Virus genome (UHGV): UHGV-0337752
DNA: 39,655 nucleotides
DNA from: a virus
Direction: 5' to 3' (one strand)
This document shows, one piece after another, positions 2,547 to 39,591 of this stretch. Below the pieces are notes generated by a model. That model saw nothing but the letters and a program-made list of their open reading frames with translations, was not told the origin of the DNA and searched no databases. The translations under genes and the position numbers were made by a program. Numbering within the stretch: position 1 is the stretch's first letter; every line of letters begins with the position of its first letter.

Positions 2547-3512
2547 AACAAAATAGTACAGATATTAGAACTTTTTGGCGGGATTGGAAGCCCAAGGGTT
2601 GCATTGAGGAATTTGGGAATCCCAGTAAAGGCAATTGATTATGTGGAGATTGATGAAAAGGCGGTCCGAAGTTATAATGCCATGTTCAAATCAGATTTAT
2701 CATATACCCCGCAGACCGTTGTAGGATGGAATCTGCGCCCAGATATATTAATCCATGGAAGCCCATGCCAGCAGGTATCCATCTGTGGATGGATAAGCCC
2801 TACAGGGGAGCCAAAGGGTGCTGACGAGGGTTCAGGGACAGAATCATCCCTTATGTGGGAAACCATACATATCATCCAGCGGATGGGTGAGTGGAAACCC
2901 AAGGTTGTAATCTGGGAAAATGTAAAAGGTATCCGATATAAGGGGATGAAGGATAACTTTCAAAGATATCTATGTGAAATGGAGACATTGGGATATGTAA
3001 ATAACCATACCTGCCTTGATGCGAGGAATTTTGGAATACCACAGGCAAGGGAAAGGGTATTTACCATATCATGTCTGAACGGTAAGGCATTTGATTTTGG
3101 GAAGTTAAAGCATACACCAATGAAGCCCTTAGATTGTTTTCTGCAAGATAATGTAAGCAGTAAATATTATGTGACACAGCCCAGTGTTTTAAATGCAATT
3201 GGAAAAACAAACACCGCTAAAAGGGCCACTGTGATAAAAGATTATGCTTATACCATTACAGAGAGACAAGACCGCTGCCCTGCGCAGGTAATTGACTGCG
3301 GAAATGGCCAGTATAGATATCTGACGGAACTTGAGTGCTGGAGATTATTTGGATATTCAGATGATGATTTTTATGCAGCCGAAAGAGCGAATCCAGAGAC
3401 TGGCCGGACAGGTCTAAATCGGACATTATATAAACAGGCTGGTAATAGTATTGTGGTTCCAATTTTTGAAGCGATTTTTAAAGTTTTATTTGATGAAGTA
3501 TTGAATATCTAA
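2547..3512 (+). CDS. DNA (cytosine-5)-methyltransferase, orphan, with non-canonical or missing start
   Basis: Motif IV GSPCQQVS, motif VI VIWENVKG and motif X QAGNSIVVP are present. Motif I ELFGGIGSP is encoded in-frame upstream of the first canonical start (TTG at 2604). The frame is open only from the stop at 2544. AGGAGGT RBS at about 2538-2544. Confidence 0.8.
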   Translation, partial: NKIVQILELFGGIGSPRVALRNLGIPVKAIDYVEIDEKAVRSYNAMFKSDLSYTPQTVVGWNLRPDILIHGSPCQQVSICGWISPTGEPKGADEGSGTESSLMWETIHIIQRMGEWKPKVVIWENVKGIRYKGMKDNFQRYLCEMETLGYVNNHTCLDARNFGIPQARERVFTISCLNGKAFDFGKLKHTPMKPLDCFLQDNVSSKYYVTQPSVLNAIGKTNTAKRATVIKDYAYTITERQDRCPAQVIDCGNGQYRYLTELECWRLFGYSDDDFYAAERANPETGRTGLNRTLYKQAGNSIVVPIFEAIFKVLFDEVLNI

Positions 3513-7583: not shown

Positions 7584-7967
7584 AAAATCAATACAGTGAT
7601 AATTCGGAACGCCAAAGAATGGCAGCGATTAAGGACATGGAGAAATATCCATCTCCAATGACTAAGGCATTTCTACGACCGGCATATGATAGGACTGAAA
7701 TATGTCCTGATTTTTCCAGGAGGCCAAGTAACCAAAATTAGCGTATTATTGATACTTATAAAAGATATTTATTATTTGCATATCAAGAATTTTATTCTAA
7801 AGGAGGTATGCATGATTGTTTATTAAAAACAAATGATTATAAAAAATTAAATGAAGAAGCTATTGATTATGCCGCTATGAATGATTATGACCATATCCAG
7901 TATTATGATTGTCAAACTGGTAATACTTTTGTATGGGATTATGAAAGACGTGAATGGAAGGATAGCG

Positions 7968-8213
7968 ATGAATAAAATTGATTTAAAAACAGTATATCCA
8001 TTAGAAAAACCACCTTTTGAAAAATGCCCTTATTGTGAGAACGAAGAATTTTATATTAAACAATATGCACATGGTAATGTTAATTATCATTATCGTTTCA
8101 ATGGTAAAGATGGAGAAAATGGAGAATTACATGAGCCATTATCTTATACAGATATTGGAAAATTTGCATATTGTTCTGAATGTCAGAAAAAATTATTTAA
8201 ATATCGAAATTAA
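7968..8213 (+). CDS. zinc-ribbon protein (CPYC...CSEC), about 81 aa
   Basis: Internal ATG of track ORF 7881-8213. The upstream part of that ORF is AT-rich and hydrophobic junk. Confidence 0.4.
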   Translation: MNKIDLKTVYPLEKPPFEKCPYCENEEFYIKQYAHGNVNYHYRFNGKDGENGELHEPLSYTDIGKFAYCSECQKKLFKYRN

Positions 8214-8225
8214 TGTGGAGGTATT

Positions 8226-8333
8226 ATGGTTTGCAAAGAATGTGAGAAGTGCTATAACTATATGGTATGCGAGAGTGGCTGTTATGGAAGTAATGAGCCA
8301 TGCGAATATTTTGTTTCAGATACAGACAATTAA
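8226..8333 (+). CDS. 35-aa Cys-rich mini-protein
   Basis: RBS GTGGAGGT then ATG. MVCKECEKCYNYMVCESGCYGSNEPCEYF... Confidence 0.3.
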   Translation: MVCKECEKCYNYMVCESGCYGSNEPCEYFVSDTDN

Positions 8334-8344
8334 CATTTGAGAAA

Positions 8345-8380
8345 TAAAAAAGAGCCTTGCGGCTCTGCCCGACGTTTTCG
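8345..8380. terminator. bidirectional rho-independent terminator-like hairpin
   Basis: AAAAAAGAGCC-TTGC-GGCTCT followed by GTTTTCG. On the minus strand the same stem is followed by TTTTTTATTTC. Confidence 0.4.
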
Positions 8381-8549
8381 CTGGCCTGTGCACCGGCCTG
8401 GAACCTAATCCGAGGGTGAGGAATTGCAACCTCACAAGGGTCTACTGACGGCTTTGCGTTCCCTGTTATTTAATTTTATTATAACAGCTTTTGATTGCAG
8501 CTTCAATAGTAACTTAACATTTCCGGGAGAACCGGAGGAAGGAAAGATT

Positions 8550-8873
8550 ATGACGGTCAGAGATGCAATTGAAGGATTTGAGATAGATAATGCGCTTTTG
8601 ACAGGAAAAGAAGATGGAACTGTAGAGCGTAATATCATGGCAATAGAAGCGCTTGAGGCAATGGATAACTATAGATGGATTCCGGTAGATGAGCGGACAC
8701 CAAAAACCAGTGGGGCTATGCGGGAGGATGAAAAACTCTTGATTTTATTGCCAGATGGAATGAGGACGGTATCGTTTTATATCAATACATCATCAGGAGG
8801 AAAGATGTTTTTTGATGGATGGGATTCATACAACCCAATTGCCTGGATGCCATTACCAGATAATCAAAACTGA
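8550..8873 (+). CDS. DUF551-like phage protein, about 107 aa
   Basis: RBS GGAGGAAGGAAAG before ATG 8550. C-terminal WMPLPDNQN resembles the conserved W-x-PLP tail of DUF551 prophage proteins. Confidence 0.45.
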   Translation: MTVRDAIEGFEIDNALLTGKEDGTVERNIMAIEALEAMDNYRWIPVDERTPKTSGAMREDEKLLILLPDGMRTVSFYINTSSGGKMFFDGWDSYNPIAWMPLPDNQN

Positions 8874-35986: not shown

Positions 35987-37060
35987 TTACATGCTGTTCA
36001 GTTTTTCAAAGTGCTTATTGATTTTTTTATTCTGCCGGACAGATTCCAGGTCAATTACATTTCTGTATACAGTTTTCATGATATTGTCACTGGCCCATCC
36101 TCCCCGCTGTAAAATATACTGGTCTGGTATCCCTATAGCGTGCATAATGGATGCGGCATAATGCCTGAGGTCGTGGAATCTAAAGTGTGGTATATCAATC
36201 TTTTTAAGTACTCGCCCAAATCTGTGTGTGATGTAATCTGGATTCATATCAACCAGCTTTCCCTTCTTGCCAGATATTCGGTCAATTACAAATGCTGGCA
36301 TTTCTACGTCCCGTGTACTATCATCCGTTTTAGGCTGCTTAATATACCACTGATTGTCTGGCCCCTTGACCATATTGTCTCTTACATGGATAATATGCCC
36401 TTCTACGTTCTTGTATGTCAGGGCGCTTATTTCTCCTCGCCTGAGTGGTCCAAAGGCTGCTAATAATACAGCTATCTCTAAATCAGTACCCTTGATTGCA
36501 TCCAGCAGCTTTTTAATATCGTTGTCGTTTGGGCAGTATAGGTCGGGACGTTTTTTCTGGGGAAGCTTAACTTTTAGAGTTAAATCCGGCGCAAACATTT
36601 CCAATGATGCGGATAATAGTCCATAAGCATTTCTGACTGTCTTTGGAGACAATTTTTTTGCAGCCAAATTACTTACCCATATCTGTACAGATGGATTTGT
36701 TAGCCCTGAGAGCCGTTTCCGCCCAAATGCGCCGCTGAAATACTGTCTTTGCAGACCACGGTACCCTCTGAGCGTAGAAGGGCTTAAAACGCCGCTCTTG
36801 ACGTTTAAATAACGTTCAATAGCATCGTTGACCGTGATATCTTCGTCCTCGTCCTCGTCCGGTTCATTGTATTGCTCGATAGGCTTATCCTTCATATCTA
36901 ATTTCCATCTGGTAGCCATGTCCTTAGCTTTCTTATGTGACGTCGCTACAAAGCTTTTGTAATGCCGTTTTCCTTTTTCATCCGTGTATAGATATAGCTG
37001 ATACCGAACGTTACCAGACGGCAGTTCTCCTGTTTTCTTTTTCGGGGCTTTTTTGGTCAT
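35987..37060 (-). CDS. tyrosine integrase
   Basis: ATG (MTKKAPKKK...) preceded by GAAGGAGGAAGAAAA. Catalytic motifs LRRGEI, HDLRHYAAS and GGWAS...MKTVYRNV. Track ORF is extended upstream to 37129. Confidence 0.8.
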   Translation of the reverse strand: MTKKAPKKKTGELPSGNVRYQLYLYTDEKGKRHYKSFVATSHKKAKDMATRWKLDMKDKPIEQYNEPDEDEDEDITVNDAIERYLNVKSGVLSPSTLRGYRGLQRQYFSGAFGRKRLSGLTNPSVQIWVSNLAAKKLSPKTVRNAYGLLSASLEMFAPDLTLKVKLPQKKRPDLYCPNDNDIKKLLDAIKGTDLEIAVLLAAFGPLRRGEISALTYKNVEGHIIHVRDNMVKGPDNQWYIKQPKTDDSTRDVEMPAFVIDRISGKKGKLVDMNPDYITHRFGRVLKKIDIPHFRFHDLRHYAASIMHAIGIPDQYILQRGGWASDNIMKTVYRNVIDLESVRQNKKINKHFEKLNSM

Positions 37061-37112
37061 TTTTCTTCCTCCTTCATTAATTTTCCTAAAAATAGGTATA
37101 AAAAATACAGCT

Positions 37113-37245
37113 CCGCAAACATCTTGCAAAGCCGCCCCGAAGATGGTACAATATAGGTGCGATTATAGTGCATATCTTCGGGTATGTAGGCCGGTTCCTG
37201 TTGGCGCAGGGGCCGGCTTTTACTTATTTCAAACCAAATTGCGCT
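37113..37245 (+). ncRNA. candidate small RNA: promoter plus about 70-nt transcribed region plus terminator
   Basis: TTGCAA-N17-TGGTACAAT (extended -10) at about 37120-37158. A GC-rich hairpin GGCCGGTTCCTG...CAGGGGCCGG followed by CTTTTACTTATTT at about 37188-37232. No plausible ORF. Confidence 0.3.
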
Positions 37246-37925
37246 TTTGAAGTCAATTTTCCATTTGTAAAATACATCGTTGCATTAGCTCCTGATGAAT
37301 CATCTCCGTACCATATGTATGCGGTAGAATTAATGTCTAAAATGTTAGTTTCTGCCATAGGTTCTCCTTCTCCACCAATTATATTTACACATTCTTGGTA
37401 TGTCATTCCAGTAGTACATTGATTATATTCATTCAGTGTTATGTGATAACTGTAAGTGCGCGGCCATGATGAAAATATCCCAATACCCCATAAAGTTATA
37501 AATAAAATCGTAAGTATAATTCGCGTTGATTTTGTTCCTTTTTTGTAATACCACATTAAAAACAATCCTAAAGGCATACAACAAATAAAAAGCATTAGAA
37601 TATAAAACCAATCTTTTTGATAGAATTTATAATCTTCAGTAGAATGTTCAATAATTTCTAATTCTGGATTATTTTCTTGTATTAGTTCAATAGTTCTTCT
37701 TATTTTATCATTTGCTTTATGATTAAAGTTAAAACGTTTTACATTATTTGAATCATAAACAAAATCCAGATATCCACCACCTACTCCAATTTGAAAATAG
37801 CAATACTCAATTTTTTTTAAATCTGAGTAAAAAATTTTTGTAGAATTACCAAACAAGTCTATAATTTTGGAATCCTTTTTTCCTACAAATAACTCTTGCG
37901 AAGCGCCCTTAATGCTCATGAACAT
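37224..37925 (-). CDS. two-TM membrane protein with BamE/SmpA_OmlA-like extracytoplasmic C-terminal domain
   Basis: TMs WFYILMLFICCMPLGLFLMWYY and RIILTILFITLWGIGIFSSW. C-terminal TGMTYQECVNIIGGEGEP...YIWYGD...ATMYFTNGKLTSKAQFGL. Low GC. Confidence 0.5.
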   Translation of the reverse strand: MFMSIKGASQELFVGKKDSKIIDLFGNSTKIFYSDLKKIEYCYFQIGVGGGYLDFVYDSNNVKRFNFNHKANDKIRRTIELIQENNPELEIIEHSTEDYKFYQKDWFYILMLFICCMPLGLFLMWYYKKGTKSTRIILTILFITLWGIGIFSSWPRTYSYHITLNEYNQCTTGMTYQECVNIIGGEGEPMAETNILDINSTAYIWYGDDSSGANATMYFTNGKLTSKAQFGLK

Positions 37926-37966
37926 CCTCCATAATGTGCATCAGACTCAATGACCAGCCCTGTACT

Positions 37967-38647
37967 TCAATTAGAATCTTTATACTGCTCCATCTCTTCT
38001 TGATGTTCAATATAGGAATTACACATTTTTGCATATTGTTCTACATCAAACTTTTTTCTCTCTTCAAATCTTTTTCTGGTTAATTGTTCGTTAGCAGTAA
38101 TTTTTTCTAGGTCCTTTGATGGACAAAATTCTGGACCTAGACATCCACTTTTTTCATAAGATACCAATTTATTCAATTCTATTTTAATCTCATTCAATGA
38201 AGTTTCAAATATATCTTCATCTTTGGTGGTGTTTACGATTTCAGCCAATGTTTTTATATGTTCTAAAATTTCTTCTGGTAATTCATAGATTTCTTTTTTA
38301 GCCCACTTACAATATATAAATATAGATAAGAAAATCACAAACAATATTAAAGGTCCATAACCAAATAAATAAAAGAAGTTCTGAATACAATATAATATTA
38401 AAAATATTATAAATAAAATTGATATCCCACCCAAAATACCTTTTATTGTTTCTGTAGACATATTATTTTTATATGTTTTTATTTTTCTGCTACTTTTAAA
38501 TGGATAGGCCATTAATATAAAAGGAAAACTATATAAATTATAAAACAGTCTAAATGGTAGCAATAATATATGTTTCCTTTTTTCTTTTCGCTTATATGAA
38601 CTTCTTACCCACATGCGCTTTATATAATGGTATTGACTGGGACGCAT
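37967..38647 (-). CDS. membrane protein (2-3 TM), AT-rich, 226 aa
   Basis: Basic N-terminus, then TMs ILGGISILFIIFLILYCI and GPLILFVIFLSIFIYC, then a charged C-terminal domain. Confidence 0.5.
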   Translation of the reverse strand: MRPSQYHYIKRMWVRSSYKRKEKRKHILLLPFRLFYNLYSFPFILMAYPFKSSRKIKTYKNNMSTETIKGILGGISILFIIFLILYCIQNFFYLFGYGPLILFVIFLSIFIYCKWAKKEIYELPEEILEHIKTLAEIVNTTKDEDIFETSLNEIKIELNKLVSYEKSGCLGPEFCPSKDLEKITANEQLTRKRFEERKKFDVEQYAKMCNSYIEHQEEMEQYKDSN

Positions 38648-38650
38648 AAG

Positions 38651-39076
38651 CTATCTCCATTCTTTAAATTCAAAAAGTTTTTCTCTGTATCCTGTTAAAC
38701 AGGAAAGTTGCTTTTTATTTAATCCTGGGTTTTCTAATATAGTAGTATCCGGTATCAGTAGCTCCGCAGCAAAAATATTTGCTTCTTGCTCTGGCCTTGC
38801 TTTACTAAAAAAAGTTCCTCCAAAAAACATACATTCAGTACCTTTGTGTAGCACATTGTGCCCAACTTCGTGAGCTAAGACTATATTACTGTATTTTATA
38901 TCTGTTATGCGGGAATTGATGCATATACATGATATTCCTTCGTATTCTATGTAATAGCCTGAGTTTTTTCCCAGGTCATGCTTTTGTACGATAATCCCTA
39001 AATAATCTGCGAGTTCCCAGGGATTCCTGGTTCCGTATTTTTCAACCAGATTCAAAACAGTATCTTTAATCTCCAA
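38651..39076 (-). CDS. ImmA/IrrE-family metallopeptidase
   Basis: HEXXH motif LAHEVGHNVLH. Lies immediately downstream of and coupled to the XRE repressor gene. Confidence 0.7.
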   Translation of the reverse strand: MEIKDTVLNLVEKYGTRNPWELADYLGIIVQKHDLGKNSGYYIEYEGISCICINSRITDIKYSNIVLAHEVGHNVLHKGTECMFFGGTFFSKARPEQEANIFAAELLIPDTTILENPGLNKKQLSCLTGYREKLFEFKEWR

Positions 39077-39079
39077 TCG

Positions 39080-39502
39080 CTACTCTCCAAAGCCTTCCTG
39101 CTTTTTCTTAATCTTAGCTGCCCTACAAAGTGATAACAGTGAGTCTCTTAATAATTTATCCTCATCTTCATCCCCTGAGTAATCCTCGCCGTTAAATCGT
39201 AGTACAACCGTTTCGTTGTTCCTTATGCGCTTCATAATCTCGTCAACATCATTAATTACATTAAGCTCTTCCGTGTTAGAAAGAGTGGGCTTCTTTTCTT
39301 CTGGGGATTCCTCCTTCCCATTCATTAAGTAATCAACAGTTACTCCAAAGAAATCAGCAAGTTTTTGCAATCTCTCCGGTGTAGGAGTGCTGTTTTTCCA
39401 TTTAGAAACAGAACCATTAGAAAAACCCAGCTCCTTTTCTAGTTTTCCTTGCGAAAGCCCAGTGGATTTTCTTAAGCTTTCAATCCGCTCATATACGGTC
39501 AT
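39080..39502 (-). CDS. XRE-family repressor (ImmR/CI-like)
   Basis: ATG (MTVYERIESLRKSTGLSQGKLEKELGFSNGSVSKWKN) preceded by AAAGGAG. HTH_3 N-terminus with acidic C-terminal domain. Track ORF is extended to 39538. Confidence 0.7.
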   Translation of the reverse strand: MTVYERIESLRKSTGLSQGKLEKELGFSNGSVSKWKNSTPTPERLQKLADFFGVTVDYLMNGKEESPEEKKPTLSNTEELNVINDVDEIMKRIRNNETVVLRFNGEDYSGDEDEDKLLRDSLLSLCRAAKIKKKQEGFGE

Positions 39503-39520: not shown

Positions 39521-39591
39521 ACAGAAAAAATTCTGCAAAAAAAGCTTGACAATTAGAAAGAGTTCTGTATAATAGAGATATAGATACAGAA
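39521..39591. promoter_or_regulatory. operator-like palindromes TTCTGTAT-N13-ATACAGAA and CAGAA-AAAA-TTCTG
   Basis: 8-bp perfect inverted repeat straddling the -10 at about 39563-39591. A related half-site palindrome lies at about 39522-39535. Confidence 0.4.
39546..39573 (+). promoter_or_regulatory. strong sigma-A-type promoter TTGACA-N16-TATAAT directed rightward out of the window
   Basis: Consensus -35 and -10 hexamers. Divergent from the repressor gene. Confidence 0.5.

Follow-up and report, generated by a model that had tools for sequence, protein, structure and literature searches.

The virus genome UHGV-0337752 comprises 39,655 nucleotides, and we refer to this whole stretch as the window. 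In its lysogeny region, between the integrase gene and the genes of an ImmR/ImmA repressor module, lie two AT-rich genes for predicted membrane proteins, which we call gene 1 and gene 2 and which are the subject of this study. All five genes are read from the minus strand, in the order immR-immA-gene 2-gene 1-int. Gene 2 (37967-38647) is an open reading frame (ORF) encoding 226 amino acids, with a ribosome-binding site (RBS), GGAG, 7 nt 5' of its ATG. The full ORF of gene 1 spans 37224-37925 and encodes 233 amino acids; its true start is likely the second ATG, at 37919, which stands 6 nt after GGAGG and yields a protein of 231 amino acids (37224-37919). A preliminary description of this DNA had placed both genes on the lysogeny strand between the integrase and the ImmA/ImmR genes, and the layout bears this out: gene 2 starts 3 nt after the stop codon of immA, gene 1 follows after a further gap of 41 nt, and a terminator appears only after gene 1. 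Since a terminator scan finds no terminator-like site ahead of the end of gene 1, co-transcription of immR, immA, gene 2 and gene 1 is likely; gene 2 and gene 1 would thus probably be transcribed with the repressor in lysogens. Both genes are membrane-associated, occupy a hypervariable slot of the lysogeny operon, and are independently mobile.

The 1424-bp cassette that the two genes form has a GC content of 28.3%, compared with a mean of 40.4% (standard deviation 3.4%) for segments of the same size across the window. This places it in the lowest 0.5% of such segments, and effectively at the window's minimum, in agreement with the AT-richness ascribed to both genes beforehand. GC content at third codon positions is approximately 20% in both genes, versus 39-44% for immR and int, and overall GC content rises from 28% to more than 50% exactly at the stop codon of gene 1. 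Two more low-GC islands occur elsewhere in the window, at approximately 621-1320 (29.0%) and 7651-8350 (29.6%), each measured over 700 bp. The four ORFs examined in or beside these islands (266-691, 923-1645, 7881-8213 and 8424-8873) have no Pfam match, and the islands may represent further acquired accessory genes.

Long ORFs commonly arise by chance in AT-rich DNA, and neither gene carries an annotation that conveys a function. One must ask, therefore, whether this AT-rich filler contains nothing more than spurious ORFs or the remains of decaying genes. The pattern of substitution says otherwise: with relatives of 90-98% identity as the reference, gene 1 has a ratio of nonsynonymous to synonymous substitutions (dN/dS) of 0.07-0.10 and gene 2 one of 0.19-0.27 (0.07-0.27 across the two), compared with 0.07-0.11 for immA. 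Homologues extend down to 25-40% identity and keep conserved motifs while their synonymous sites vary, both proteins give confident AlphaFold2 (AF2) models, and both genes have good RBSs. The spurious-ORF explanation is thus effectively refuted, and we conclude that both genes are real and under purifying selection.

The preliminary description took the two genes for a co-conserved pair, and an obligate two-gene superinfection-exclusion (Sie) or abortive-infection (Abi) system would fit their adjacency, their shared strand and their similar AT-richness. We compared loci by searching the retrieved ones, numbered below with an L, for the five lysogeny proteins with tblastn. In one group of loci (L020, L021, L023-L026, L028), gene 1 is 97-98% identical and stands beside an integrase of about 90% identity, with a different repressor and no gene 2. 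In L001 the order is immR-immA-gene 1-int, with gene 1 at 68% identity and gene 2 absent. More broadly, among 51 IMG/VR loci that encode the N-terminal head of gene 1, the gene 2 family profile finds a relative in five, all of them from the clade of this phage itself, and the other 46 have none. Gene 1 is common, then, without gene 2, and the reverse comparison is similar: gene 2 homologues of 25-36% identity precede unrelated genes, namely a zinc-ribbon, weakly DUF4429-like protein and then a serine recombinase (L008), a lipoprotein (L009), or a zinc ribbon-transmembrane (TM)-DUF4352 protein (L035). In favor of a pair, two diverged relatives of gene 2 do precede a protein resembling pleckstrin homology (PH) domains: in L157 a protein with the same type of head as gene 1 and a SHOCT tail, and in L008 the weakly DUF4429-like protein just mentioned.

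The junction between the two genes bears directly on this question. A recombination scar parts them (37916-37951, minus strand), consisting of the last 11 codons and stop (IESDAHYGGCS) of a gene of 75-76 amino acids which, by alignment, is intact 5' of gene 1 in relatives without gene 2. Blastn homology to these gene 2-less relatives begins exactly at the scar, with breakpoints at 37951/37952, and the scar supplies the RBS of gene 1. The scar and the breakpoints imply that gene 2 came with the ImmR/ImmA block, which replaced a different immunity module ahead of a gene 1-int block that was already present. The integrase travels with gene 1. Gene 2 is separable from its upstream neighbors too, since in L013 and L022 it is 95% identical while ImmR and ImmA are only 66% and 78% identical. 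Given near-identical copies of gene 1 beside the same integrase without gene 2, the 46 of 51 head-bearing loci without a gene 2 relative, the unrelated genes that follow gene 2 relatives in L009 and L035, and the scar itself, the obligate pair is largely excluded by its separability and strikes us as very improbable. The co-conservation proposed at the outset does not hold, and we are highly confident that gene 1 and gene 2 are independent genes.

We modeled gene 1 with AF2 from a 23-sequence alignment (mean confidence score, pLDDT, 85). Its head (residues 1-95; 37635-37919, minus strand), which we call the MSIKG head, has seven beta strands within residues 2-65 and a C-terminal helix at residues 67-83, all at pLDDT 82-94. 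A seven-stranded beta sandwich closed by a C-terminal helix is the arrangement of the PH fold, and the Foldseek matches of the head in the PDB are PH domains of Sin1, TFIIH p62 and FACT Spt16/Pob3 (entries 3voq for Sin1, 7bul for TFIIH p62, 2gcl and 5ums). In the model, the head is a PH-like fold, and it is predicted to be cytoplasmic. It has no match among Pfam PH-clan models at E<=1, and its hhalign comparison with the DUF4429-like protein of L008 gives only E=0.016 and a probability of 3%. The positions M1, S2, I3, K4, G5, L10, Y31, G49, F65 and N70 are invariant in 16 of 16 diverse heads. The N-terminus, MSIKGASQELFVGKK, lies inside a folded beta strand; checked for a signal peptide or lipobox, it shows no hydrophobic stretch and no lipobox.

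The membrane region of gene 1 (37464-37610, minus strand) consists of a hydrophobic segment at residues 104-124 with a kink at CCMPLG, a loop YKKGTKSTR with a charge of +4, and a TM helix at residues 130-152; the corresponding AF2 helices are 104-109, 112-124 and 130-151. We assigned the topology of this protein, and of gene 2, from hydropathy and charge counts. Two complete spans would place both ends of the protein on the same side of the membrane. In homologues with a single TM helix (P0020, P0024-26), basic residues precede that helix. These homologues and the +4 loop suggest that the first hydrophobic segment of gene 1 is probably re-entrant, and that the second alone crosses the membrane, which would put the head inside and the C-terminal domain outside.

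This ectodomain (residues 159-231; 37227-37445, minus strand) is a single BLIP/DUF3862-type repeat. The DUF3862 model PF12978 matches residues 159-232 of the 233-residue ORF with 28.7 bits (gathering cut-off 25; E=1.4e-6). Only the latter half of the model is matched (84-159 of its 159 profile positions), so that gene 1 has one repeat, of about 73 residues. The BLIP model PF07467 gives E=1.3e-3 and 19.8 bits, below its cut-off of 26.7, over positions 3-67 of 123, and the PHROG family annotated as BLIP, phrog_6148, gives E=1.7e-14. In the AF2 model, helices at 162-167 and 174-181 pack on four strands between residues 186 and 228 (pLDDT 81-93), that is, a helix pair on a four-stranded antiparallel sheet, as in the BLIP repeat. 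Foldseek against the PDB returns the DUF3862 protein 3D4E of S. mutans (E=4.6e-4) as well as BLIP, BLIP-I and BLP, with BamE (5d0o_E) lower in the same list; superposition on 3D4E, BLIP and BLIP-I gives root-mean-square deviations of 1.6-3.8 A, the value for BLIP-I 3gmw being 1.6 A. Gene 1 is not a BLIP proper, in which two repeats in tandem make up the concave face that binds beta-lactamase. It matches 0 families of PADLOC-DB v2 at E<=1, and NCBIfam gives noise only. Of the anatomy first proposed for this protein, the membrane anchoring and the BLIP/BamE-like ectodomain are borne out and the N-terminal domain is again predicted to be cytoplasmic, whereas one membrane crossing is now likelier than two.

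A modular family occupies this same genomic slot, and the MSIKG head is its constant part. In some members the head is followed by two TM segments, either alone or with a BLIP repeat or a DUF4352/DUF5067 domain; in others it is fused to a tRNA_anti-like OB domain or other ectodomains, to zinc ribbons, or to a second beta domain with a glycine zipper and SHOCT. In L204 and L210 it is fused to FtsK_gamma and an Mrr_cat nuclease, and the Mrr_cat parts match PADLOC nuclease models, the ZorD Mrr-like nuclease and PDC-S02 among them. Beside integrases of at least 90% identity to that of the window, the slot holds an MSIKG-head gene in 28 of 33 loci, in at least six alternative forms; in the remaining five it is taken by small or unknown proteins of other kinds, among them membrane proteins of the DUF2085 and TM2 types. 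Tandem pairs of MSIKG-head genes are also seen beside the same integrase (L230 2855-4015, with equivalents in L231, L232 and L233; L193 4001-4918), as a 200-residue zinc-ribbon type and then a 175-residue two-TM type, or a 96-residue head-only ORF. A protein search with the alignment of the gene 1 head returned mostly fragments.

The body of gene 1 is exchanged as a cassette, since blastn homology between L197 and the window ends at the MSIKG start and returns at 37233, 10 nt before the stop codon. The region 37107-37219 (minus strand) bounds this swappable cassette on its 3' side and is also where the immR-immA-gene 2-gene 1 transcript probably ends. Within it, the terminator scan finds a GC-rich hairpin at 37188-37219 and a terminator-like hairpin with a T-run at 37135-37107. 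The first of these, a strong hairpin of 14 pairs, comes directly after the stop codon of gene 1 and has its T-run on the plus strand; it would therefore terminate antisense transcription arriving from the int side. The site at 37135-37107 is the better terminator on the lysogeny strand.

A family of this kind could serve lysogenic conversion. That is, the two genes might alter the envelope physiology of the host rather than its phage sensitivity: for example, the BLIP-like repeat could inhibit or bind a penicillin-binding protein, a beta-lactamase, an autolysin or a competitor toxin, and gene 2 could alter membrane properties. Domains of the BLIP family bind and inhibit enzymes that are periplasmic or secreted, both genes belong to the lysogeny operon and have no defense homology, and other occupants of the slot, such as the DUF2085 and TM2 proteins, are generic small membrane proteins. 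However, what stays constant across the gene 1 family is the cytoplasmic head and not the ectodomain, and the fusion of that head to purely cytoplasmic FtsK_gamma and Mrr nuclease modules is hard to reconcile with the inhibition of an envelope enzyme. The rapid allelic turnover beside one integrase also suits conflict genes better. We therefore regard conversion of the host envelope as an unlikely explanation, albeit one that deserves consideration, above all for the BLIP-like ectodomain.

Gene 2 was modeled with AF2 from 34 sequences (mean pLDDT 84). From the N-terminus, the model consists of a basic helix, a proline-rich hydrophobic helix, a basic loop, a TM hairpin, and a five-helix domain. 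The first 13 residues, MRPSQYHYIKRMW, form what we call the N-box (38609-38647, minus strand). A weaker, proline-rich hydrophobic helix at residues 27-56 and then the basic loop come ahead of the hairpin (residues 65-121; 38285-38455, minus strand), which hydropathy and charge delineate and whose AF2 helices, 65-95 and 98-121, are joined by GYGP. The cytoplasmic domain (residues 125-225; 37973-38275, minus strand) is all-helical, with five helices at pLDDT 90-98 and a central motif AEIVNTT, and contains the C-box, FDVEQYAKMCNSYIEHQEEMEQY (37982-38050, minus strand), with the core MCNAYLEHQEEMEQY. From the distribution of charge, both termini are predicted to be cytoplasmic. The basic N-terminus, hydrophobic helices and charged helical C-terminal domain foreseen for this protein are all found in its hydropathy profile and model.

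Searches with gene 2 returned little. Foldseek of the gene 2 model against the PDB and BFVD finds nothing at E<=1e-3, the helical domain included; the best low-deviation BFVD matches are uncharacterized gut-phage proteins and one "restriction endonuclease". A sequence-profile search of the PDB with the gene 2 family gives only TM noise from ion channels, and gene 2 has no match in Pfam, NCBIfam (noise only) or PADLOC-DB v2 at E<=1, its best PHROG match being E=0.019. The protein contains no OB fold, but rather a hairpin and an all-alpha domain, and it starts with a basic helix, not a lipobox. We reject a holin or lysis role on grounds of position, for gene 2 belongs to the repressor operon and not to the lysis module, at about 34.4-35.7 kb of the window.

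A profile search of 1.84e9 representative proteins finds only 93 clusters related to gene 2 at E<=1e-3; gene 2 is the founding member of this hitherto unannotated family. The N-box is identical in homologues of 25-40% overall identity, and their codons differ at synonymous sites; therefore, selection acts on the peptide, and we reject the possibility that the N-box is a DNA- or RNA-level element, or the product of recent recombination. The N-box of 45 representative clusters reads M-[RK]-P-S-x-Y-[HN]-Y-[IL]-K-R-M-W-x-R, and it begins at residue 1 in nearly every case. The C-box consensus of 73 family members is D-[ILV]-E-R-[YF]-A-x-M-C-N-A-Y-L-E-H-Q-[ED]-E-M-E-Q-Y, usually 6-25 residues from the C-terminus, and it occurs with or without the N-box: among 98 proteins examined, 22 have both boxes, 23 the N-box only (some of these are fragments), and 45 the C-box only. 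Some relatives carry additional modules, namely an inserted FtsK_gamma winged helix (P0053, P0120, P0126) or an Mrr_cat nuclease (P0064, P0093, P0102, P0121), the latter matching the PADLOC models for the ZorD Mrr-like nuclease and PDC-S02.

Several variants of this architecture deserve mention in their own right. The soluble C-box proteins P0072, P0081, P0087, P0090, P0115, P0123 and P0125 begin with another motif, M.F..K.LD..KLDSTRE.E, which looks like a second, alternative N-terminal "address" for the helical/C-box module; in P0087 and P0132 a large unannotated C-terminal domain follows. In P0042, P0053, P0063, P0066, P0069, P0070, P0078, P0085, P0121 and others, a basic stretch and then G-C-(L/C/I) immediately precede the first hydrophobic helix, a motif absent from the window's gene 2. 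A degenerate DNA pattern for the N-box, applied to metagenome contigs, proved too loose, with six true N-box genes among the 120 matches listed. In two metagenome contigs (L101 467-535; L108 6803-6871) an N-box ORF, MRPSHYHYLKRIWTRKPSKKRN, ends after 22 codons, and is either a pseudogene or a free-standing N-box peptide.

Box-bearing relatives of gene 2 stand directly after a repressor or protease gene in all seven independent contexts that show the preceding gene, and the intervals range from -4 to +18 nt. The preceding gene encodes ImmA, a mini-ImmA-like protein of 73-85 residues or an S24 repressor; as an exception, the box-less Mrr variant P0064 sits elsewhere, near a Mu-F-like head gene. 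This invariable position immediately 3' of the regulator, with gaps that suggest translational coupling, raises the alternative that gene 2 is itself part of the lysogeny switch, as a membrane-anchored partner or sensor of the repressor and its anti-repressor protease. Sequestration of ImmA, or a link from membrane stress to induction, would be possible mechanisms, and the invariant terminal peptides do suggest docking to a conserved partner. Three facts make such a role hard to maintain: with three types of regulator upstream (ImmA, mini-ImmA-like and S24 LexA-like), a specific partnership with ImmA is unlikely; close relatives with other immunity modules do without gene 2; and ImmR/ImmA alleles are exchanged while gene 2 stays (L013, L022). 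The Mrr nuclease fusions, moreover, indicate an effector rather than a switch. We consider a switch function for gene 2 distinctly doubtful.

The mini-ImmA-like gene is an observation of separate interest. In alternative immunity modules, a protein of 71-85 residues (MSIDYNVQLISFPSGKVHEAVTPNEDGTVTIFLDKNAT...WHVMRHLEGNDF...) follows the helix-turn-helix (HTH) repressor at the place of ImmA (L023 4774-5004; L026 4777-5004; L157 1368-1625; L035 3777-3998; L009 2314-2529). It has no Pfam match, except for a weak Peptidase_M78 record in the L035 version, and may be a minimal ImmA-like partner.

The neighboring genes of the window identify the immunity module. The lysogeny operon opens with immR (39080-39502, minus strand; AAAGGAG ahead of its ATG at 39502), a repressor of HTH type by its matches to HTH_3 (PF01381, E=1.5e-11, 44.6 bits, above the cut-off) and HTH_19 (E=5.5e-10). 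It is followed by immA (38651-39076, minus strand), which matches Peptidase_M78 (PF06114, E=2e-15, 57.1 bits, above the cut-off) and phrog_87 (E=5.5e-20) and whose translation contains the HExxH motif, as HEVGH. An HTH_3 repressor followed by an M78 protease with HExxH is the composition of an ImmR/ImmA module. On the far side of the cassette lies the tyrosine integrase (35987-37060, minus strand; Phage_integrase, E=7.8e-10). At 39546-39573, on the plus strand and pointing away from immR, stands a perfect sigma-70 consensus promoter, TTGACA-16 nt-TATAAT, which presumably drives early lytic transcription on the cro side of the genetic switch. Outside the lysogeny region, the window has the makeup of a temperate siphovirus-type genome. 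It encodes a VanY/M15 endolysin and, in the early region (2604-3512, plus strand; PF00145, E=4.7e-37), a C-5 cytosine DNA methylase, likely an anti-restriction or orphan enzyme.

The cluster mates of both proteins come from genomes of Enterocloster bolteae, E. clostridioformis and E. aldenensis, where those of gene 2 are named "hypothetical protein" and those of gene 1 "DUF3862 domain-containing protein". A near-identical copy occurs in a metagenome-assembled genome labeled "uncultured Dorea" (L010). Judging from these cluster mates and L010, the host of the phage is Enterocloster (Lachnospiraceae). Neither the lysogeny region (by megablast) nor gene 2 (by tblastn) has a match among 50,697 GenBank phages.

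How do the two proteins compare with known systems? A membrane "moron" of the prophage lysogeny module, possibly acting in superinfection exclusion, is a well-known kind of element. The closest parallel for gene 1 that we consider is Ltp of the S. thermophilus phage TP-J34, which is encoded in the lysogeny module, expressed from the prophage, tethered to the cell surface, and blocks DNA injection (PMC3952083). Gene 1 likewise lies in the lysogeny module between integrase and repressor, and is predicted to present a small protein-binding domain at the outer face of the cytoplasmic membrane; transcription in the prophage state has been shown for Ltp and is expected for gene 1. In contrast to Ltp, gene 1 has no signal peptide or lipobox, being anchored by internal hydrophobic helices, and it has a cytoplasmic PH-like head of 95 residues, which Ltp lacks. 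Its ectodomain is a BLIP/DUF3862 repeat, whereas that of Ltp consists of HTH-like repeats, and the two proteins share no sequence similarity.

The ectodomain of gene 1 belongs with the DUF3862, BLIP and BamE/SmpA_OmlA domains, in that its C-terminal 73 residues exceed the DUF3862 threshold and superpose on 3D4E, BLIP, BLIP-I and BLP. Whereas BLIP consists of two repeats in tandem, gene 1 has one, fused to a membrane anchor and a PH-like head, and we do not expect it to bind beta-lactamase. The head resembles the bacterial PH-like (bPH, DUF4429) domains in its fold. Many bPH/DUF4429 proteins end in SHOCT, as do some head-bearing relatives of gene 1, and the neighbor in L008 gives a weak DUF4429 match. 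The head differs from these domains in matching no Pfam PH-clan model, and its invariant MSIKG N-terminus and restriction to the prophage slot between repressor and integrase are specific to its family. A literature search on DUF3862 in prophages and on DUF4429 found nothing relevant. The DUF4352 domain of some other MSIKG-head proteins has been linked to Mpr phage resistance in mycobacteria (PMC12596739); this domain is absent from the window's gene 1.

For gene 2, the relevant comparison is with PdpSau of S. aureus prophages and AbiP of Lactococcus, which are membrane-anchored and cause abortive infection (PMC10127798). Gene 2 is likewise a single protein of the prophage- or plasmid-borne type, with an N-terminal membrane anchor and a cytoplasmic domain, and that domain is directed to nucleic acid in AbiP and PdpSau and in some relatives of gene 2. 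AbiP and PdpSau have one N-terminal TM helix and an OB fold, however, in place of a hairpin and an all-helical domain without a fold match; pdpSau is a gene of the lysis module and does not follow the repressor, and neither protein is homologous to gene 2. A likeness to single-gene nucleases such as PDC-S02 is confined to the fused Mrr_cat effector of relatives (P0064, P0093, P0121, L204, L210), for the window's two genes have neither a nuclease domain nor a match to these models.

Taking these results together, we favor, with a probability of roughly one half, the reading that gene 1 and gene 2 are two separate accessory genes ("morons") of the lysogeny module, juxtaposed by recombination, the likeliest function of each being protection of the lysogen at its envelope. 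Both proteins would be made in lysogens, and each alone would act against incoming phages. In gene 1, the membrane anchor would connect the PH-like head to one BLIP/DUF3862 protein-binding repeat on the outside, which, as in the case of Ltp, might bind a component of the phage tail tip or a surface or entry factor of the host; the head would serve a common cytoplasmic function, such as docking, oligomerization or sensing. The hairpin of gene 2 would hold the N-terminal peptide and the helical domain with its C-box at the inner face of the membrane, so that the protein would exert its effect from the cytoplasm, at the site of phage DNA entry. That some of its relatives carry FtsK_gamma or Mrr modules suggests DNA as the target, and the invariant terminal peptides of gene 2 would dock onto a conserved partner. 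Position and architecture also lead us to think an anti-phage function of at least one of the two genes possible, at somewhat less than even odds.

A number of observations weigh against protection of the lysogen by two separate genes. We find no similarity in sequence or fold to any proven Sie, Abi or defense protein; the preliminary description had likewise recognized no known system, and in fact 0 PADLOC families match either gene, nor does any PHROG family annotated for exclusion. The only matches to PADLOC in this region are immA and immR, as CapP/CapH-like and RmrA-like regulators. The other occupants of the slot that were scanned give no PADLOC match either, so the slot is not demonstrably a defense hot spot. 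The DNA-binding and nuclease domains of some relatives are missing from the window's gene 2, and what the family suggests about DNA may not transfer to it. The gene orders of L157 and L008 may reflect some loose functional association of gene 2 relatives with PH-like proteins. Finally, low GC content and turnover are also typical of lysogenic-conversion genes that have no part in defense.

Whatever the function of the two genes, their families, terminal motifs and module shuffling appear to be undescribed. As judged from sequence, both families are built of conserved modules that have recombined with DNA-binding, nuclease, membrane and surface modules. The abundant temperate phages of gut Clostridia carry in their lysogeny modules accessory genes that are almost entirely unannotated; here we define for them a hypervariable repressor-to-integrase slot and two modules that recur in such phages, the PH-like MSIKG head and the N-box/C-box membrane protein. 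The strictly conserved terminal peptides of gene 2 provide handles for finding its partner. More tentatively, and with rather low confidence, we suggest that the MSIKG-head proteins and the N-box/helical/C-box proteins are two new families of single-protein, modular anti-phage systems in prophages of gut Lachnospiraceae. If so, each would join one conserved module, for sensing or docking, to effectors that can be exchanged (membrane anchors bearing various ectodomains, SHOCT oligomerizers, or FtsK-gamma with an Mrr nuclease), expressed from the repressor operon, and the invariant N-terminal peptide of gene 2, 13 residues long, would serve as a short linear motif for docking onto a conserved host or phage machine at the membrane. 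If these are indeed exclusion or defense proteins, they would provide Gram-positive gut representatives for a field dominated by Proteobacteria and lactic acid bacteria, as well as a simple rule for finding others: to look directly after the repressor or ImmA gene.

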